Below, piece after piece: positions 678 through 53,152 of a stretch of DNA of 64,000 nt. The stretch lies in IMG/VR virus record IMGVR_UViG_3300047666_001259, positions 32,001 through 96,000 of that record; one strand, 5' to 3'. Made by a program: the position numbers and the translations under genes. Every line of letters starts with the position of its first letter. The first letter of the stretch is position 1. The notes under the pieces are model-generated. The model saw nothing but the letters and a program-made list of their open reading frames with translations, searched no databases and was not told the origin of the DNA. The stretch is from a virus.

Positions 678-904
678 TAACGATGTACCTTTTTAAAAGC
701 AAAACGGGCGAGTGTAAAATTTGAAAATTATGGATGATAAAACGATAGCTTATTATTTACAGCACAAAGTAGAAGTAAAAGAGAATAGCTTAAAACCTAT
801 GGATAAACGTCATAAAATACCTAAGCGCATAAAGAAGGAAATAAAAGAACTAAAAGCAATGATTGAACACTTGACGGAATAATTTTTTGTTTTTATACAT
901 TGTT
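678..904 (+). repeat. attC-like hairpin A2 with an ORF inside the loop
   Basis: Left arm AACGATGTAC..TAAAAGCAAAA pairs with right arm TTTTGTTTTTATACATTGTT. Confidence 0.65.
730..882 (+). CDS. 50 aa basic hypothetical protein inside the loop of site A2 (not in the ORF track)
   Basis: ATG 730 to TAA 880-882, MDDKTIAYYLQHKVEVKENSLKPMDKRHKIPKRIKKEIKELKAMIEHLTE, AT-rich leader. Confidence 0.6.
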   Translation: MDDKTIAYYLQHKVEVKENSLKPMDKRHKIPKRIKKEIKELKAMIEHLTE

Positions 905-935
905 GTGCTTAACGAAGTGGTGTTTTAATGAAGCA

Positions 936-1007
936 CAACGGTTGCAAATATGAGAAGTAAATCTTTTCATTAAAAAATAGACAAAGTAAGATTTATTTCT
1001 TATATTT
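936..1007 (+). repeat. attC-like hairpin A3 (GTT core degenerate)
   Basis: AAATATGAGAAGTAAATCTT pairs with AAGATTTATTTCTTATATTT. Confidence 0.65.
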
Positions 1008-30077: not shown

Positions 30078-31202
30078 ATGGATTACAAAGACTACAAGCC
30101 TTGGGTGCAAACCAAACTATCGCCCAAATTCCACTCAGACCCTGAAGATGATCGGGAGAGTGAATTGAGAACAGTTATTGAAGACTTCATTAAAGTCGGA
30201 AATCAACTAGATGTTCTTAAAAAGAACAAATTTTACGGAAGAGTTAAAGGTCATCCCAATCACGTAGAGTCAGGGGTTGAGGTTCGTCCCTCAGATTCTA
30301 ATTTTATAAAAGAATCTGAAGATGAACAGCTTCTTCATGCTATTATCGGAATGGCAACTGAAACAGTAGAAATGCTGGAGGCGATCTATGCCTCAAAATG
30401 GAAAGGAGAAGAATTCGATACAGTGAATTTCTTTGAAGAAATGGGAGACCTTGAGTTTTACCGTAGCATTCCATTTAATAACCTCGATTGGACTGAGAAA
30501 CAAGTCCGTGATACCAATTATTTCAAGTTAGAGAAAAGATATCCAGAGGGTTACACTGATAACAGTGCGAATAACCGTGATCTGGAATCAGAAAGAGAAA
30601 TTCTCGAAAAAGGTTTGTCAGAAAAAGTCACCACAATTATCGATGAACCAGTAATTCTGGTTTTCTATCTCAATGTTGGTAATTTAGAAGAATGTGATGT
30701 GCAGGAATCCATTGAAAAGATCAAGCATCAATTCCGTTTTAAAGATGAAAAATTTTTAAGTTTTTTTATTCCTGTGCGTAACCAAGATTCTAAGGTCGAA
30801 TGTATCTATCCTGTTCTCCTTGATGATACACAAAAATCAAAAGTCAAAAAAGCAATTCAGCGACTCGAAAAAGAAATACCTGAAATAAGCTATAAATTTA
30901 TTTATGTTGCCTTAACAAGTTTTGATGCATTTCATGGAATAAAAGTTCCAGCAAGATTTGAAAATTTGATGAGGGAAATTGAATCCACTTATGACGAGAT
31001 GATTGAAGGTGTGTTTACTGATTATGACGAGTACAGAAGTTTTGAAGTTGAATGCGCTTCGCAAGCAAGGCATGGTTCAAACGGAACAACTGAGTATGAA
31101 TCTCTTAAAACAGATGATTTAACTGACCTTTTTGATGTAGAAAAAGAACAGATAATAAAACTTGAAAGTTATAAATTTCTAACCTTCAGTTATGATGTCT
31201 GA
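30078..31202 (+). CDS. MazG-like NTP pyrophosphohydrolase with C-terminal extension
   Basis: LLHAIIGMATETVEMLE, EEMGDLEFY, N..KLEKRYPEG. Confidence 0.8.
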   Translation: MDYKDYKPWVQTKLSPKFHSDPEDDRESELRTVIEDFIKVGNQLDVLKKNKFYGRVKGHPNHVESGVEVRPSDSNFIKESEDEQLLHAIIGMATETVEMLEAIYASKWKGEEFDTVNFFEEMGDLEFYRSIPFNNLDWTEKQVRDTNYFKLEKRYPEGYTDNSANNRDLESEREILEKGLSEKVTTIIDEPVILVFYLNVGNLEECDVQESIEKIKHQFRFKDEKFLSFFIPVRNQDSKVECIYPVLLDDTQKSKVKKAIQRLEKEIPEISYKFIYVALTSFDAFHGIKVPARFENLMREIESTYDEMIEGVFTDYDEYRSFEVECASQARHGSNGTTEYESLKTDDLTDLFDVEKEQIIKLESYKFLTFSYDV

Positions 31203-31599
31203 AAGAAAAATTATCGAAAAAGGTCTTATAAATGACGAGTATTTTTATCTATCTTTAATAGAGGTGGGGGCTAAAATTCCATTAAAATTTAAACCTTTAA
31301 TGGAGGAAATAAAAACTAACTTTAATGGAAGTTTTGAATATATATTTGATAATTATGAAGATTATCAAATACAAGTAGAAGTTTTCAAATCTAACAATGA
31401 TATTGAGTCATACGAGACAATAGAATATGAAGATGATTATAATGCAATACTTTCTGATTTATGGAATATTTCAGAAAATAAATTATTAAAGCTCAAAAGT
31501 TATAAAGAACTTAAAAAGAAAGATATTATTGAAAAGCTGAATGCAGCCAATGAAAGTAAAGATTTGCTTTCAACAATAAAACATCAAAAATTAAAGTAA
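31192..31599 (+). CDS. hypothetical protein
   Basis: ORF track. Confidence 0.55.
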   Translation: MMSERKIIEKGLINDEYFYLSLIEVGAKIPLKFKPLMEEIKTNFNGSFEYIFDNYEDYQIQVEVFKSNNDIESYETIEYEDDYNAILSDLWNISENKLLKLKSYKELKKKDIIEKLNAANESKDLLSTIKHQKLK

Positions 31600-31603
31600 C
31601 AAC

Positions 31604-32713
31604 ATGAACAATCTAGATAAACAATACCAAGACTTACTTCAAGATATTCTTGAAAACGGCACAAAAAAAGGAGATAGAACAGGAACAGGAACTATCTCAG
31701 TGTTCGGAAGACAAATTCGACACAACATGAAAGATGGGTTCCCTCTTTTGACTTCCAAGAAAATGGCAACCAAACAAATTATCACTGAACTTCTTTGGTT
31801 CTTACGTGGTGAGACAAATATTCAATCTCTAGTTCAAGATGGAAACTATATTTGGGTTGGTGATGCTTATAAGAAATACACCACGTACCACAATAACCAT
31901 CCAACTATCCACTCCAATAGATTTGAGATTCTTTCTAGAAAAGATTTCATCGAAAAAATCAAAACTGATAACGATTTTGCTAAACAATGGGGCGATTTAG
32001 GGCCAATCTACGGGAAACAGTGGAGAAAGTGGACTTCCACTTATTTTGATAAATACACCTCTCAAGACCCGAAAGATTTATCAGTTCACGTAGATCAAAT
32101 TGCAGAGATGATAGATAAGCTCAAAAACCGACCAGATGATCGAAGAAATATGGTTACTGCTTGGAATCCAGCTGAAGTAGATGCCGCAACACTTCCTCCA
32201 TGTCATTATGGTTTTCAAGTTTGGACAAGAGAACTCTCTATAAGTGAAAGAAATATGATCATGTACGATCACCCTGAGTTTGATGTAGGTGATGTTCCAA
32301 TAGGAAAGCGAGAAGAGGAAGATAAAGAACATTATCTCAAAATGGATCACCAATTATGTGATGGGTATAATGTTCCAAGGCGAGGAATTTCACTTCTCTG
32401 GAATCAAAGGTCTTGTGATACTCCTTTAGGGATTCCGTTTAACATTGCTTCTTACGGAGCTTTGTTGCAAATATTAGCCCAAACAGTAAACATGGTTCCT
32501 GAGGAGTTGATTGGAAATCTTGGCGACACTCACATTTATTTGAACCAAGTAGATGCAGTAAAAGAACAGCTTAAAAGAGCTTCTCACAAACTACCTCAAT
32601 TGGAAATTGAAATACCAAAAGGAATGACTGACCCTGCTGAGTTAAAGTATGAAAACTTCAAGTTATTAAATTATATATCAGAAGACAAAATTGCCTTCGA
32701 ATTATCAAATTAA
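31604..32713 (+). CDS. thyA: thymidylate synthase
   Basis: DRTGTGT, ELLWFLRG, LGPIYGKQWR, LPPCH, QRSCD..LGIPFNIASY, GDTHIY. Confidence 0.97.
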   Translation: MNNLDKQYQDLLQDILENGTKKGDRTGTGTISVFGRQIRHNMKDGFPLLTSKKMATKQIITELLWFLRGETNIQSLVQDGNYIWVGDAYKKYTTYHNNHPTIHSNRFEILSRKDFIEKIKTDNDFAKQWGDLGPIYGKQWRKWTSTYFDKYTSQDPKDLSVHVDQIAEMIDKLKNRPDDRRNMVTAWNPAEVDAATLPPCHYGFQVWTRELSISERNMIMYDHPEFDVGDVPIGKREEEDKEHYLKMDHQLCDGYNVPRRGISLLWNQRSCDTPLGIPFNIASYGALLQILAQTVNMVPEELIGNLGDTHIYLNQVDAVKEQLKRASHKLPQLEIEIPKGMTDPAELKYENFKLLNYISEDKIAFELSN

Positions 32714-47856: not shown

Positions 47857-48168
47857 ATGAAAAAAGAAAATTTAATAGAACAATATAAAGAAATATCGAA
47901 AACATATTCATCTTTTGAAGATTGTTATAATCTTGTAACAGAAACTAATAATGTAGAAATATGTAAATTTTGTTTAGATTCTGATGGTATTTGGAAAAGA
48001 CTTGAATTACAATGGATGTTGGAATTTTTTCAAACCAACGAAGAATATGAAAAATGTGAAGTTTTGAAAAAATTAATAGAAGAACATTTTATTGCTGATG
48101 AATATAAACAAAATGAGTTGAATAGTAAATTAGATGAATATGTTTCTTATATAAATAACGGTAGTTAG
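47857..48168 (+). CDS. hypothetical protein (possibly first cassette of array 2)
   Basis: EEYEKCEVLK motif; very AT-rich; ends in TAACGGTAGTTAG. Confidence 0.65.
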   Translation: MKKENLIEQYKEISKTYSSFEDCYNLVTETNNVEICKFCLDSDGIWKRLELQWMLEFFQTNEEYEKCEVLKKLIEEHFIADEYKQNELNSKLDEYVSYINNGS

Positions 48169-48512
48169 TAATCCTATATAAGAATAGTAATAAAGGACGT
48201 GGAACTGCCGCTAATGAAATAATGAGTGGTTATGCGTTGTATAATAACAACTGTGCTGAACCCACTTGGTTACTTACTGAGTTTAATTATTTAAAAGAAA
48301 CAACAAATATTAAATTCAAAAAATACTTTGGATATAAATTAACTGAAGAAGAAAGCGTTGTGTTTTGCTATGAAAATGATTGATATAATGAGTGAGACAC
48401 TAAGGAGTGCAAAGGGAGTGCCTAATGGCTCTTTTCGGTGTGCCGATGACGAATGTATGTTATCCCCCTCTCATTCATTATATCTTTTGTTATTGTGCGT
48501 TTTAATACACTC

Positions 48513-48714
48513 TAACGGTTTGTGTATGGGTATTTTTTGCCCGATTTAATAATAACTAAAATTTAATAAAATGACTGAGGAAATTAAGCAATTACTGATT
48601 GACTGTGCAAACTTTATCCAACCGTATGATGATGGAGGAAACGAAGCTGAAAGGTTAATGATAAGACTTGATGAAGCACTAAAGCAAGGGTAATAATTAC
48701 CTATACACGTTGTT
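48513..48714 (+). repeat. attC-like hairpin B2 with an ORF in the loop
   Basis: GTGTATGGGTATTTTTTGCCC pairs with GGGTAATAATTACCTATACAC. Confidence 0.75.
48571..48693 (+). CDS. 40 aa ORF inside the B2 loop (not in the ORF track)
   Basis: MTEEIKQLLIDCANFIQPYDDGGNEAERLMIRLDEALKQG with the shared AATAACTAAA leader. Confidence 0.55.
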   Translation: MTEEIKQLLIDCANFIQPYDDGGNEAERLMIRLDEALKQG

Positions 48715-48736
48715 GTATGTCTTTTTTAATTGCATA

Positions 48737-48790
48737 CAATATGTTGTATGTGCCGTTATGAGGCACGAGCAATGAATTTTAAACCTTGTT
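48737..48790 (+). repeat. attC-like hairpin B3, homolog of A1
   Basis: GTATGTGCCGTTATGAGGCACGA..AATG..TAAAC..TGTT. Confidence 0.65.
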
Positions 48791-48805
48791 AGGCACTTTA
48801 CGATA

Positions 48806-48997
48806 ATGGATAAGATGGAATCATTCACGTACAAAGGCTTCAAGGTAGACCCAACTTGTTATAACTATGGTTTTGAATGTATAGTTCAAGACGAAGCACC
48901 AAAGCTATTTGGTATGTCTATAAATGGCATCAAGTTAGAGATTGACGAATGGATTAAAAAAGAAAAAAGGGAAGGGGAAAACTTAGAGTACCTATAA
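48806..48997 (+). CDS. hypothetical protein (cassette cargo)
   Basis: ORF track. Confidence 0.65.
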   Translation: MDKMESFTYKGFKVDPTCYNYGFECIVQDEAPKLFGMSINGIKLEIDEWIKKEKREGENLEYL

Positions 48998-49014
48998 AAT
49001 TAAAGACAAATAAA

Positions 49015-49320
49015 ATGAACGAATCAAAAGAAATGATGGGGGAGCAATGTTTAACCGAAAAACAAACATTAAAAACCTCTTTAGAAAAATTAAACCAAAG
49101 AAACTATGAACTGAATGATATTGCGTCATTAAGTTCTCTATTAGTAGAAAAATTCTTTAACCCTAATAACGAGCCTAGAGATAATCAAGGTTCTGATAGA
49201 GAAAAAGAAAGACAGCCTGATAATATAGTTGAAGTTTTTGACGAGGTATCTAAAAAGCTTGGTAATAACATAAACACTATTGGGAGCAATTTGCAAAGAA
49301 TATTGGCAATAATGGAATAA
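49015..49320 (+). CDS. coiled-coil hypothetical protein (cassette cargo)
   Basis: ORF track. Confidence 0.65.
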   Translation: MNESKEMMGEQCLTEKQTLKTSLEKLNQRNYELNDIASLSSLLVEKFFNPNNEPRDNQGSDREKERQPDNIVEVFDEVSKKLGNNINTIGSNLQRILAIME

Positions 49321-49392
49321 CCAACTTGTGAGCGTGGGCTTTTTCTTATTAGCAGAATGTTTGATTTGAAACTGAATTTAGCCCATGACTTA

Positions 49393-49479
49393 CAACGTTT
49401 AGGCTAAGGTTAGTAGCCTTTAATACTAACCATTAAATTATAACAAGACCTATTGAGGCTATTAATTTTAGCCATTGTT
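49393..49479 (+). repeat. attC-like hairpin B5
   Basis: GGCTAAGGTTAGTAGCCT pairs with AGGCTATTAATTTTAGCC; related to the A7 arms. Confidence 0.75.
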
Positions 49480-49493
49480 AGGCATAGTTTATT

Positions 49494-49697
49494 ATGGAAG
49501 CAAGAGAATTTTACGACAAAAGAATTAACGAAGAACCGACTATTGGAAGCGTACAGTTAATGGAAGAATATGCAAAACATATTATTGAAATTAACTTTTG
49601 TGATGGCTCTCCTATTGAATTTAACAAACTATCGGTTGAGCAACTAAAAACAATTCACAAAAATATAAATAAGTGTGTCGATTGGGTTAACTCCTAA
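49494..49697 (+). CDS. hypothetical protein (cassette cargo)
   Basis: Bounded by GTTAGGCATAGTT and AATTGTGCCTAAC. Confidence 0.7.
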   Translation: MEAREFYDKRINEEPTIGSVQLMEEYAKHIIEINFCDGSPIEFNKLSVEQLKTIHKNINKCVDWVNS

Positions 49698-49704
49698 TTG
49701 TGCC

Positions 49705-49828
49705 TAACGGAATTGTATAAGGTTTCGTTACGTAGATTAAATAATAAATTAACAAATAAAAACTGAATTGTGATTAAGCAAGAAAATAATAAACAAACAG
49801 AAATTAGTAATGAACTTTATACGGTGTT
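49705..49828 (+). repeat. attC-like hairpin B6
   Basis: GTATAAGGTTTCGTTAC pairs with GTAATGAACTTTATAC, one extra base in the left arm. Confidence 0.75.
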
Positions 49829-50108
49829 ATGCCCCGTTAATTTGTTTAGGTACTTCCTTCGCAAGCAATACAAAGACGTTGAAATTAGTAACGAAGAATG
49901 CGATGAATTAAACACAGACTTTCACAAACACTTAACAAGCCTAAAGTTAAGCGAAAAGCAAAAGGAAAACATAATGCCTAAAAGTGAAATAGATGTAATA
50001 ATGAACTCTGAACACCCATTAAGAATGGATGGATTTAGCCCTGCTTATGTTTTTCATTTTGGTGAATATATAAAAAGTAGAGCAGTCGCATTGGCTAATG
50101 GGGCATAG
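49770..50108 (+). CDS. hypothetical protein starting in the B6 loop
   Basis: SNELYTVL is encoded by the right arm; ends TAATGGGGCATAG, complementary to GTTATGCCCCGTTA. Confidence 0.65.
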   Translation: MIKQENNKQTEISNELYTVLCPVNLFRYFLRKQYKDVEISNEECDELNTDFHKHLTSLKLSEKQKENIMPKSEIDVIMNSEHPLRMDGFSPAYVFHFGEYIKSRAVALANGA

Positions 50109-50113
50109 CTGTT

Positions 50114-50302
50114 GTTATCGGCAGTTTAATTGAAAAATATCAAAAAGTTCGCAATAAAAATCAGGAGCAATTTATGACTCAATTTGGAAATGAATATTCT
50201 ATATCAAACGCACTTTTATTGGAAGAAAGAGATTGTTGCGACAGATTTATAGAAGATTTGAAAAAACTGCCGATAACGGCTGATGATAAACAATCGTTTT
50301 AA
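50114..50302 (+). pseudogene. headless cassette ORF left after collapse of its upstream hairpin
   Basis: Open frame VIGSLIEKYQKVRNK...KLPITADDKQSF* beginning exactly at the GTT core. Confidence 0.45.
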
Positions 50303-50320
50303 TGTTGTTTATCATTTGTT
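50274..50320 (+). repeat. attC-like hairpin B8 (shortest intact site)
   Basis: TAAC GGCTG ATGATAAACAA TCGTTTTAATG TTGTTTATCAT TT GTT. Confidence 0.8.
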
Positions 50321-50433
50321 ATGTGTAGGTGTGGTTAATTAAGGTAGAATGTTTAATCGGAGAACTGAACAAAAATTTTAAAAGAAAAAGAAGGGTTGAT
50401 TTTAAAATTTGAATATTTATATATAAACATATT

Positions 50434-50952
50434 ATGAGTGAAGATATGAGAAAAATGATTGATAAAGCTAAGAACTTTAATCAGTTTTTAAATGAAAACG
50501 AAAATTTAATGAACCAAATATTAGATAAAATTAGTTCTAATGGTATAACATCATTAAATACTGGTGAATTAAAATATTTGAAACAATATTCTTCTGGACA
50601 AATAAATCCAGATTTAGAAAAAGCACTTCAAGTTGAAAGTGGTTTTGTTTTTGTTTCAAAAAATATACCACTGTTAAGATTTGAATATAATTTCACCGAA
50701 GAATCAGATGAAGAATATCAAAAAATGCTACACAAAGGAACCGTTTATATTGACGGATTAGAATTTGATGGAGATATTTATTGTGATGAAAATGGAAAAT
50801 ATGAAGCATTCGATTTTCACACATATCAATCCAATGATGATGGCACAACTGACCAAATAGAAGATTTAGCTTACTATGATGATGAGTTAGATGGTAAGAT
50901 AGAAAAATTCTTTAAAAATGAAGTTTCTCCTTACTTAACCTATTCATTTTAA
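50434..50952 (+). CDS. acidic protein with a phage-late-type N-terminus (cassette cargo)
   Basis: MSEDMRKMIDKAKNFNQFLNENEN; TATTTAT at 50414-50420. Confidence 0.7.
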   Translation: MSEDMRKMIDKAKNFNQFLNENENLMNQILDKISSNGITSLNTGELKYLKQYSSGQINPDLEKALQVESGFVFVSKNIPLLRFEYNFTEESDEEYQKMLHKGTVYIDGLEFDGDIYCDENGKYEAFDFHTYQSNDDGTTDQIEDLAYYDDELDGKIEKFFKNEVSPYLTYSF

Positions 50953-51001
50953 AAAGTTGGCGGGATTTTTCTTTTAAAATTTTCAACCGAAATGTTGATT
51001 A

Positions 51002-51041
51002 GAACGATAAACGGAACGATAAACGGAACGATAAACGGAAC
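51002..51041 (+). repeat. 12 bp tandem repeat GAACGATAAACG x3.3
   Basis: Direct reading of the sequence. Confidence 0.9.
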
Positions 51042-51050
51042 ACTTACACA

Positions 51051-51140
51051 TAACGTTAAGTATATGGTTTTGTAAGCCATAGCAGAAATTTACAAATTAA
51101 AAACGAATATTAATTAGGCTTATAAACTATATACATTGTT
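51051..51140 (+). repeat. attC-like hairpin B9
   Basis: GTATATGGTTTTGTAAGCC pairs with GGCTTATAAACTATATAC. Confidence 0.8.
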
Positions 51141-51178
51141 GTGTGTAATACGGGATTTAAGCCACAAACTTTATAAAA

Positions 51179-51361
51179 ATGCAAAGAAAGATAAATTGCA
51201 AACACAACAACATGGGTGCTTGGTGTACCAACAAGGATATAAAACGCTCATTGTTTGGTATAGGTGCAAGATGTTGTACTGAATTTAATGACAAAAAATG
51301 TGATTTAAAAGAAATTAGAACAAGGAAAGGCAAGCCGCCACCAAGACCAACGAAAGCGTAG
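51179..51361 (+). CDS. small Cys-rich basic protein (cassette cargo)
   Basis: Bounded by GTTGTGTGTAATAC and GTATTACACACAAT. Confidence 0.7.
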   Translation: MQRKINCKHNNMGAWCTNKDIKRSLFGIGARCCTEFNDKKCDLKEIRTRKGKPPPRPTKA

Positions 51362-51370
51362 TATTACACA

Positions 51371-51588
51371 CAATGTTATGGATATGGATTGATTTTTAAC
51401 GGATAAATAAACACAGAATTATGAATATAGACGAAGAAAATAAAGCAAAAGAATTTTACATTAAGAGTGCTATAAATGGCATTCATACACCACGAACTAA
51501 TATGGTTGAGATAAACTATTTAGATATGCTAAAGCTAATGCACTCTTACAGCCAAGAGGTAGTTAAAAATTTATCTATATCTGGTGTT
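51371..51588 (+). repeat. attC-like hairpin B10 with coding loop
   Basis: GGATATGGATTGATTTTTAAC pairs with GTTAAAAATTTATCTATATCT. Confidence 0.75.
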
Positions 51589-51759
51589 AAGAACTGGGTG
51601 GCGGTTAAAGACTCTATGCCCGAAAATTGCGACCAAGTTTTTGTAAAGTATGAAAATGGCAAATATGGAATAAATGAATGGTGGAAAAGTGATGATTGCT
51701 GGAAATACCAATTTGATAATATGATAGTAAAAGAATGGTGTAAGCCACCTTGTTCTTAA
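51421..51759 (+). CDS. DUF551-like protein starting in the B10 loop
   Basis: NWVAVKDSMPE...VFV...V.EW.KPP. Confidence 0.7.
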   Translation: MNIDEENKAKEFYIKSAINGIHTPRTNMVEINYLDMLKLMHSYSQEVVKNLSISGVKNWVAVKDSMPENCDQVFVKYENGKYGINEWWKSDDCWKYQFDNMIVKEWCKPPCS

Positions 51760-51819
51760 CGTCTCGTATATGGTGTCGGAATTTTATTTTTCTTAAAATT
51801 ATGCATTATATACTTTGTT
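51757..51819 (+). repeat. attC-like hairpin B11
   Basis: GTATATGGTGTCGGAATTT pairs with AAATTATGCATTATATAC. Confidence 0.7.
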
Positions 51820-51853
51820 ACCAATAGTACGGATTTTAATAACTAAATTTAAT

Positions 51854-52135
51854 ATGAAAACAATAACTTCAATTATAGCACTAGCTAAGGCATTTTTTAT
51901 ATTGCTTGTTAGGCGTAGTGCTTCTTTACCGCAAGTCTTAATGACTAAAAATGATTTTGAATTAGTTTTAAACCACTATCTACTAAATTATTGGGATATA
52001 AAACATGAAAATATTGATGGATTTGAACATTTAACAATTCAAAATCATTTACCATTTTATAAAAAAAGGTTTGAAGAAATGAAAAAAGTAATTGATGAAC
52101 GCAAGATTATTCGTGTGATGGTGCATTACACCTAA
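51854..52135 (+). CDS. hypothetical protein (cassette cargo; likely ATG 51854)
   Basis: Crosses an orphan right arm and GTT at 51890-51910; ends GCATTACACCTAA, complementary to GTTAGGCGTAGTGC. Confidence 0.65.
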   Translation: MKTITSIIALAKAFFILLVRRSASLPQVLMTKNDFELVLNHYLLNYWDIKHENIDGFEHLTIQNHLPFYKKRFEEMKKVIDERKIIRVMVHYT

Positions 52136-52197
52136 CACTGGAATAGATTGCGTTTCAATGCAACTCTATGGAATGTTAAAGCACGTTTTAATGTGCT
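52133..52197 (+). repeat. terminal attC-like hairpin B13 plus tail hairpin
   Basis: TAACACTGGAATAGATTGCG..TGCAACTCTATGGAATGTTAAAGCACGTTTTAATGTGCT. Confidence 0.75.
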
Positions 52198-52215
52198 AAA
52201 TTTTAAATTCATAAA

Positions 52216-52500
52216 ATGAAAGATTTGAAACCAAATTTTAAATCAGTTAGAGAACTCTGTGAAGAGTTCGGAGTTCAGGTAGAGCTTTCTTTCGGGAAGA
52301 AATTTAGAGCTATCGTGAGCAATGATGAAGAAATTCATGTGTTACAAAACGGATGGGATAAAAATCTAATTGAAGAAATCTCAGCCTTATCTGCTGAGAT
52401 GTGGAAAAGAGAAGAAAAAAGATATAAGGAGATTTCTGATAGGCTTAAAAACTTAGACCCTGAAATCTTTCCAGACAACTTATTTGAAGATAAAGAATAA
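52216..52500 (+). CDS. hypothetical protein
   Basis: ORF track. Confidence 0.6.
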   Translation: MKDLKPNFKSVRELCEEFGVQVELSFGKKFRAIVSNDEEIHVLQNGWDKNLIEEISALSAEMWKREEKRYKEISDRLKNLDPEIFPDNLFEDKE

Positions 52501-52700
52501 TGGTAAGAAGGAGCGATATTTGGTTTTTTGGAGTAATTGCATTTGCGATGTTCCTAATAATATATGATGTAGTTACGCAGACATTTCAACCTTGGCATAA
52601 CTACTGGATGATTCTCCTGATACCTTATGTTCCTATTAAGATTTTTTATTCAAAATCAAAGCTGTTCAGATGGCTTAATACAGATATATGGAAAAGTTAA
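52500..52700 (+). CDS. small membrane protein
   Basis: Two hydrophobic segments. Confidence 0.6.
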   Translation: MVRRSDIWFFGVIAFAMFLIIYDVVTQTFQPWHNYWMILLIPYVPIKIFYSKSKLFRWLNTDIWKS

Positions 52701-53152
52701 AAGCAGCAATCGAACTTAAGAGTAAGTATAACCAAATGGAGCTTGAAGAAGTGGCTGAAGAGTTCTCTAGATTCTCTGGTCAAAAAATTCCTCAGAAAGC
52801 TATTGAGGATTTTAGATTTGTTGGTCTAAACAATGTAGACTTTTTAACATCTGATTGGCTAAACCGATACAGCTTGAAAAATCTTTTTCAATACGAGGTT
52901 AAGAAAGAAAAGAATAAAATACCAAACCCAGAAGATGGTGAATTCCTAATCATGAGAATCATGCACACTTCTGATAAACAATTCCAAAAAGGAATGAATG
53001 TTTATGTGCTAAATAACGAAACTGAAGGAAACTGGGTTTCCCGACATTGTGATACAGGTTATTTAACAATTCCAAAAAAGTTTAGGCATATGGAGGTTAA
53101 AGTCTTTGAATATAACGATGACAATTGGTATTTAACAGGACTTAAATCTTGA
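52688..53152 (+). CDS. hypothetical protein
   Basis: ORF track. Confidence 0.6.
   Translation: MEKLKAAIELKSKYNQMELEEVAEEFSRFSGQKIPQKAIEDFRFVGLNNVDFLTSDWLNRYSLKNLFQYEVKKEKNKIPNPEDGEFLIMRIMHTSDKQFQKGMNVYVLNNETEGNWVSRHCDTGYLTIPKKFRHMEVKVFEYNDDNWYLTGLKS

Follow-up and report, generated by a model that had tools for sequence, protein, structure and literature searches.

Integron attC sites are organized as R''/L''/loop/L'/R', with an unpaired central spacer, a variable terminal structure and a length of 57-141 bp (PMC5027507). A cluster of attC sites without an integrase (CALIN) was described in the virulent Polaribacter phage P12002L by Qi and colleagues (PMC9892861), and the available part of that paper treats the P12002L sites as short attC sites between open reading frames (ORFs) and describes neither whole genes nor gene starts in the loop. 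A further parallel is offered by the PeSLs of T4-type phages, which are composite promoter-terminator stem-loops between genes (PMC2839356, PMC4122927). Here we report that in a 64,000-nucleotide stretch of viral DNA (hereafter the window: bases 32001-96000 of the 105.9-kb IMG/VR virus record IMGVR_UViG_3300047666_001259, rated 31% complete), whole small genes lie in the loops of hairpins whose arms belong to a covarying family of sites. Two such hairpins, A2 around a gene of 50 amino acids (aa) and B2 around a 40-aa gene, are located in the first and second, respectively, of two arrays of small co-oriented ORFs (198-2584 and 47857-53152; all coordinates are those of the window unless a locus is named). 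The explanation that we favor, and to which we give about an even chance of being correct, is that A2 is one member of an array, without an integrase, of hairpin sites that resemble attC and whose folded foot is a junction for module exchange between phages.

The family has a common layout of AAC, five unpaired nucleotides (nt; GGTTT), a stem starting with GTGTATG, a loop, a return stem ending in TATACAC, 0-3 nt (kTT) and GTT. Like integron attC sites, these sites have AAC and GTT at the foot, an unpaired spacer before the main stem and a variable loop, they are co-oriented with genes, and they delimit GTT...AAC units whose start is complementary to their own end. The P12002L_attC1 oligonucleotide, as listed in PMC9892861, consists of AAC, 5 nt, an arm, TCGTTTTAATG, an arm, ATT and GTTAGGC; this layout is identical to that of the family, and therefore sites of this kind have already been published under the name of a phage "attC". 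The phage CALINs, notably that of P12002L, also resemble the present array in being integrase-less and in lying among small accessory genes. Nevertheless, the family differs from integron attC sites in several respects: its spacers are 5 and 3 nt instead of 5-6 nt on each arm, it has two fixed G.T pairs instead of extrahelical bases, many phages have the same sequence in its first 7 stem pairs and spacer, and its gene-bearing (loaded) sites measure 200-340 nt as against 57-141 bp, with ORFs in the loop or running through an arm. In addition, no IntI was found, and homology boundaries fall at AAC rather than at G|TT. The sites share with PeSLs the character of conserved intergenic stem-loops that flank small accessory ORFs in variable myovirus regions and are tied to module shuffling between phages, but, unlike PeSLs, they enclose genes and stand on AAC/GTT feet, and no promoter or terminator consensus is enriched. 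What appears to be new is that whole genes fill the hairpin loop, giving sites of 200-340 nt, for which the available portions of PMC9892861 and of the integron literature contain no counterpart. The published CALINs of virulent phages may represent a system specific to phages, not stray pieces of integrons.

Small genes in the loops of A2 and B2

A preliminary description of this DNA, drawn from its letters, had proposed that whole genes are nested in hairpin loops, and the elements that it named (the 50-aa ORF at 730-882, the GTT at 902, the 38-bp segment 902-939, the 40-aa ORF at 48571-48693 and the short units 48712-48740 and 48489-48516) are all present. The nesting was borne out, in that the arms belong to a covarying family and both ORFs have homologs. 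A2 and the stem-loop that follows it comprise:

679-681, + strand: AAC triplet, left foot of A2, located after the stop codon (674-676) of the preceding ORF (416-676); homology to the ortholog locus L012 begins at ...ATAAC
682-706, + strand: 25-nt insertion between AAC and the spacer, missing from L012
707-711, + strand: unpaired 5-nt spacer GGCGA (GTTAA in L012)
712-731, + strand: left arm of A2 (RNAalifold stem), extending from the family core GTGTA to the AT of the start codon
730-882, + strand: 50-aa ATG gene in the A2 loop, with homologs and a codon-position pattern
879-898, + strand: right arm of A2, extending from the stop codon to the family core TATAC
899-904, + strand: 3-nt spacer ATT (899-901) and GTT triplet (902-904), right foot of A2
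902-939, + strand: GTT...AAC stem-loop after A2, with a perfect 9-bp stem (902-910 with 931-939)

The conserved stem of A2, which was located by RNAalifold on the window and L012, joins 712-731 to 879-898 through 15 Watson-Crick pairs, three G.T pairs and two mismatches. Its left arm spans positions -18 to +2 relative to the start codon and its right arm starts at the stop; because start and stop codons abut or overlap the inner ends of the arms, the ORF fills the loop exactly. A2 has the family geometry, the cores GTGTA and TATAC-ATT-GTT and the G.T pair at arm position 12, and its flanks (AGATAAC / GTTGTGC) partially fit the consensus RYYYAAC / GTTRRRY. The sequence TATAC-ATT-GTTGTG at its right foot also occurs at 51126-51144, in a site that scores 55.7 bits with the family model described below. 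The insertion at 682-706 partly copies the left arm of the neighboring site A1 (ATGTACC). Two other pairings were considered and set aside: an initial choice of arms for A2 (678-687 with 896-904) was weak and not conserved and was displaced by the RNAalifold stem, and pairing of the left half of A1 (383-400) with 894-900 across both ORFs was rejected, as the model shows A1 to be complete at 376-438.

In L012, a metagenome contig, the ortholog of the 50-aa gene occupies a canonical hairpin composed of AAC, GTTAA, a 20-bp stem, a loop that is the ORF, ATT and GTT, so that a loop ORF does occur elsewhere between the same arms. In register with A2, the L012 stem is formed by 17 Watson-Crick pairs, with G.T pairs at arm positions 7 and 12. 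The outermost stem pair is changed on both sides (G-C in the window, A-T in L012), which constitutes one compensatory pair, and several of the wobbles or mismatches of A2 are full pairs in L012. Similarity between the two loci is restricted to the interval from ...AAC (681) through AAC (939), and therefore the gene-bearing hairpin and the short hairpin that follows it are one conserved unit.

The second gene-bearing hairpin and its flanking stem-loops comprise:

48489-48516, + strand: 28-bp GTT...AAC stem-loop with the loop CGTTTTAATA, in which 7 of 9 stem pairs form
48514-48539, + strand: left half of B2, made up of AAC (48514-48516), the spacer GGTTT and the left arm (48522-48539)
48571-48693, + strand: 40-aa ATG gene in the B2 loop, whose stop codon is the first three bases of the right arm
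48691-48714, + strand: right arm of B2 (48691-48708), then GTT GTT (first GTT at 48712-48714)
48712-48740, + strand: 29-bp GTT...AAT stem-loop after B2 (GTTGTATG / CATACAAT), with a loop that resembles the GTTTTAATG motif

The B2 stem contains 14 Watson-Crick pairs and two G.T pairs, one of which is at arm position 7. At about 226 and 201 nt, respectively, A2 and B2 both exceed the 57-141 bp of typical attC sites, as the preliminary description had stated.

Both loop ORFs are real genes, because each has homologs of conserved length and sequence, and they can occur with or without the hairpin; the preliminary description therefore survives the refuting condition that it had set. The 50-aa protein, which is basic and probably helical, has three homologs of exactly 50 aa (72-76% identity), one of them on L012; a search of viral contigs with this protein found no relative. 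Between the window and L012 the gene is 73% identical in DNA, and its differences are richest at third codon positions (13/6/22 at positions 1/2/3). The 40-aa protein has ten homologs with 79-98% identity and differing C-terminal tails, and in one locus (L134) the homolog lies in an ordinary operon without arms. PHROGs and Pfam assigned no function to either protein. A variant in metagenome run X8 (882 A>G) converts the stop codon from TAA to TAG and the stem pair from T-A to T.G, and therefore both reading frame and pairing survive. A more distant homolog of the 50-aa protein, at 648-926 of L013, is fused to a cysteine-rich, zinc-ribbon-like tail (92 aa in total) and lies near an HNH-type endonuclease gene, with no hairpin.

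Since the window is AT-rich, A-rich leaders and T-rich trailers could in principle be complementary by chance. In keeping with this, the arms of A2 are low in complexity, and perfect inverted repeats of at least 10 nt within 1 kb are no more numerous in the whole record than in Markov shuffles (208 versus 208). However, when leader/trailer pairing was scored for all 224 ORFs of the 105.9-kb record, the top four scores (18-20 of 20) all belonged to array ORFs, with the 50-aa and 40-aa ORFs among them. In addition, the arms line up with the conserved cores (GTGTA... and ...TATAC-ATT-GTT), L012 retains the stem, and B2 scores 43.7 bits with the family model. Chance complementarity is thus very improbable. 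The inverted-repeat signal sits in the arrays and is not genome-wide; GTT-anchored 8-mers show a modest genome-wide excess (80 versus 54.8).

The segment after the GTT of A2, which the preliminary description had taken for an empty cassette body, proved to be a conserved stem-loop. Relative to L012, four consecutive pairs of its stem are changed on both sides, whereas the 20-nt loop, which contains an inner AAC..GTT mini-hairpin and ends in GTTTTAATG, is nearly unchanged. The GTTTTAATG motif is also present in other short GTT...AAC hairpins (48489-48516 and hairpins in L079, L014 and L108), and it closes short AAC...GTT sites in L028, L082 and L094 and in P12002L_attC1. The succession of a loaded site and a 29-41-nt hairpin of this kind is seen in L012, in L079 (where the downstream layout is the same as at 48712-48740) and twice in the window. 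The segment 902-939 is a structured part of the unit that travels with the gene, not a leftover. A GTT...AAC unit (GTTGTAAAA ... TTTTACAAC) at about 4980-5080 of L014, as oriented here, contains GAGTTCGATTCTCGCCCC, which resembles the 3' half of a tRNA; ARAGORN called no tRNA at this sequence.

A family of covarying hairpin sites

The left-core 15-mer AACGGTTTGTGTATG, which is the left end of two window sites, is found in more than 117 viral contigs among the matches listed, a count that is possible by chance in so big a collection, although the contexts are clearly non-random. Most copies are arranged as AAC-GGTTT-GTGTATG, a variable arm, a loop, a complementary arm ending in TATACAC, and GTT. 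To quantify covariation, 37 distinct short sites were aligned and 20 modelled pairs were compared with 500 shuffles. Pairing was observed in 95.3% of cells versus 78.7% in shuffles and double changes in 118 cells versus 38, values that no shuffle (0 of 500 in each case) reached, and controls with the register slid gave 28-56% pairing. Nine pairs showed compensatory changes, each with three or four pair types. The AAC/GTT feet are invariant in 36-37 of the 37 sites, the 17-bp main stem has no bulged bases, and stem positions 7 and 12 are G.T in 35 and 37 of the 37 sites, respectively. The consensus at the feet is approximately UAAC ... GUUAugu, and some array units fit RYYYAAC / GTTRRRY fully (GCCTAAC / GTTAGGC at 49701 and 49477). 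Conserved sequence is confined to the foot of the stem, and therefore the loop can vary freely in length.

A covariance model built from the 37 aligned sites was used for searches, with the following results:

Window: 9 matches, all on the gene strand, B2 included
100 fetched viral loci: 114 matches, often several per locus
Polaribacter phage P12002L: 8 matches, all on the gene strand, among methyltransferase genes, in the region that Qi and colleagues described as a CALIN

The presence of several matches per viral locus indicates that arrays are common. B2 is matched over its full length (48508-48718, 43.7 bits, E 3.8e-7), but the model does not detect A2 (679-904) and misses every site longer than about 211 nt. 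Thus, the earlier suggestion that attC models overlook such units holds, for a family-specific model, only for the longest or degenerate copies. The companion suggestion, that gene callers miss them, was contradicted: the loop ORFs are present in protein collections, and in P12002L (L133, minus strand) two annotated genes, gp41 (50 aa, 32488-32700) and gp37 (96 aa, 31114-31319), begin within loops of family sites and continue across the right arm and GTT, the corresponding model matches being weak (E 0.04-0.11).

Most family loops are 11-75 nt long and unloaded members measure 55-135 nt, gene-holding loops being a minority. Across all loci, the lengths of model matches cluster at about 55-63, 95, 120-135 and 195 nt, and the 120-135-nt class often carries a leader and a start codon. 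At A1 (376-438), an 86-aa zinc-ribbon ORF (416-676) starts at GAAAATG within the right part of the site and reads through the right arm and GTT; L109 and L123 have a site closely related to A1 with no ORF start at that point.

We searched up to 1.6 kb downstream of each left-core instance for the best complement of the 18-nt arm. Most partners lay 30-75 nt away, and six independent sites had long loops (134-290 nt) with 13-16 of 18 arm positions matching, whereas only 8 of 299 mismatched-locus controls reached at least 14 of 18. The G.T at arm position 7 was kept in five of the six long-loop sites (the sixth has a different mismatch) and that at position 12 also in four. Four of the six (B2 and sites in L065, L014 and L079) enclose a complete 40-72-aa ORF, with a stop codon that adjoins or overlaps the right arm, and in the other two (L053 and L080) the ORF begins in the loop and continues through the arm. 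Four of the six loaded sites have their left arm 30-47 nt ahead of the start codon, leaving the start region uncovered.

These loaded sites bear on the explanation that a gene entered an existing hairpin loop by illegitimate recombination and inactivated the site, complementarity persisting only because the event is recent. Such an origin would agree with the 25-nt insertion in the window A2, its excess of mismatches over L012 and its escape from the model, with the rarity of long-loop sites (about 5 of the 114 model matches span at least 190 nt) and with the 40-aa gene of L134, which has no arms at all. On the other hand, it does not readily account for six independent loaded sites that keep their arm matches and, in five and four cases, respectively, the G.T pairs at positions 7 and 12. 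Moreover, the stop codon overlaps the right arm in all four complete cases, an arrangement that looks fitted rather than accidental, and the stem is kept in both the window and L012, with one compensatory pair and several wobble-to-pair changes, while the gene has diverged to 73% DNA identity. We therefore consider relics of this type unlikely.

Proposed exchange between phages and a possible RNA role

Evidence for the exchange of units between phages comes in part from the site next to the A2 unit:

937-1011, + strand: site A3, a portable hairpin element (21.5 bits)

Eight large-phage contigs (37-429 kb; among L003-L011) carry the A3 element, of about 70-100 nt, with 100% identity over approximately 70 nt. 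Their upstream flanks are unrelated, in seven of the eight from directly after AAC, and the small genes downstream are unrelated as well. Relatives contain TATATTTG, a sequence similar to the -7 promoter box of Bacteroidota, and the window copy is without 12 nt (GTTGTTATATTT) that are found in L005. Some of the ice and sediment metagenome runs show a summed contig depth over the sites that exceeds that of neighboring bins several-fold, suggesting that many co-occurring phages share the sites; the bins of high depth are 368-451, 956-1039 and 1628-1711 (e.g., 114 versus about 9). In run X9, a 151-nt contig connects the C of AAC (681) with 2104 via 51 other bases and skips 1422 nt of the array. 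In addition, units that extend from GTT to AAC with complementary ends of 8-14 nt surround genes at 50114/50264, 1649/1880, 49477/49701 and 50318/51045, and such ends are the signature expected of integron-type cassettes.

If the sites are junctions of this kind, the stem foot of the folded hairpin would be the working part, recognized by a protein on the folded single strand, and modules would be swapped between phages at these junctions, most likely on single-stranded DNA, as is the case for integron attC sites. Any gene in the loop would ride with its site. The short GTT...AAC stem-loop after the site is part of the gene-bearing unit and moves with it. A more far-reaching proposition is that marine Flavobacteria-type phages have in common their own hairpin-site recombination system, separate from that of integrons, in which site and loop gene would form a single-stranded "lollipop" module, AAC...GTT and GTT...AAC hairpins may be loaded or empty, and modules would be swapped between unrelated phages at the AAC foot; we advance this only tentatively and consider it doubtful.

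Several observations weigh against a recombination junction. No tyrosine recombinase (PF00589) was found in the 105.9-kb record, which is 31% complete, or in a 96%-complete relative of 429 kb; among five related records, two each contain a single copy that lies far from the examined sites. P12002L_attC1 is the one of six phage sites for which PMC9892861 reported no verified IntI1 recombinants, whereas these were obtained with attC2. Long loops lower attC recombination when a site is extruded from duplex DNA (PMC5027507), and the absence of extrahelical bases and the position of homology boundaries, mentioned above, also depart from integron behavior. The sites are always on the sense strand, which an RNA role fits equally well. 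As for A2 itself, the window copy is somewhat degraded (the 25-nt insertion and two mismatches), it is the copy that the model fails to detect, the comparison with an ortholog rests on one locus, L012, and the segment 672-945 folded alone as DNA is no more stable than shuffles (z = +1.5). Finally, the joint in the X9 contig has a side of 23 nt and a depth of 2.

The most substantial alternative is that the structures act as RNA, with a leader/trailer stem that brackets each small cistron of a polycistronic transcript and controls its processing, stability or translation. The foot would then be bound by an RNA-binding protein or nuclease, and module exchange would be ordinary homologous recombination in conserved sequence. 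Long-range stems that flank a functional unit and act on RNA are exemplified by the RNase III processing stalks around rRNAs and by the intercistronic hairpins of T7 early mRNA, although these are without the AAC/GTT feet and the complementary-end units seen here. All nine window sites and all eight P12002L sites are on the sense strand of the surrounding genes, and the fixed non-Watson-Crick pairs read as G.T there, hence G.U in RNA. Consistent with a function in transcripts, the A2 arms abut or overlap start and stop codons, pairing of leader and trailer is general among array ORFs (the top four of 224), and at several sites ORFs read through the arms, which are therefore transcribed and translated. 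However, in the variable stem positions G.T is only twice as frequent as A.C (12 versus 6), and therefore the strand preference is weak. Moreover, two positions are fixed as G.T and are not free to become G-C or A-T, which looks more like a recognition feature than simple pairing, and the invariant AAC/GTT feet, the asymmetric spacers and the complementary ends of GTT...AAC units form an integron-type signature. The left arm of four of the six loaded sites, well upstream of the start codon, also fits poorly with a role at the start region, and neither canonical intrinsic terminators (in a scan of 150-2750) nor a credible Rfam match (in either array) was found. Overall, we regard an RNA role as possible but not probable.

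The small accessory genes of large phages turn over fast, by a mechanism that is poorly understood. If the site family mediates exchange between phages, as in the explanation that we favor, the folded junction would mark movable units, including genes inside a site, that lie beyond the reach and length limits of attC finders. Marine, sea-ice and sediment samples have yielded more than 100 viral contigs with members of the family, and its presence in Polaribacter phage P12002L, which is published and in culture with its host, makes it testable at the bench.

Genomic setting and further features of the arrays

The window encodes baseplate, tRNA nucleotidyltransferase, NAD-pathway and nucleotide-kinase genes, a gene set typical of jumbo phages. 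Among cultured phages, DNA matches to the window were restricted to Polaribacter and Tenacibaculum phages, and the metagenome runs that contain window DNA are of sea-ice, sediment and marine origin. The host of this jumbo phage is probably a member of the Flavobacteriaceae.

ARAGORN identified no tRNA in the window or in L014. In 150-2750, promoter-like sites were at chance level as judged with the sigma-70 consensus, from which host-type or phage-type promoters may differ. Each array terminates with a small hairpin that has a GTTTT(A/T)AT loop (2657-2683 and 52171-52197); the stems of the two are swapped, GTGC/GCAC in the first and GCAC/GTGC in the second, and a T run follows the first.

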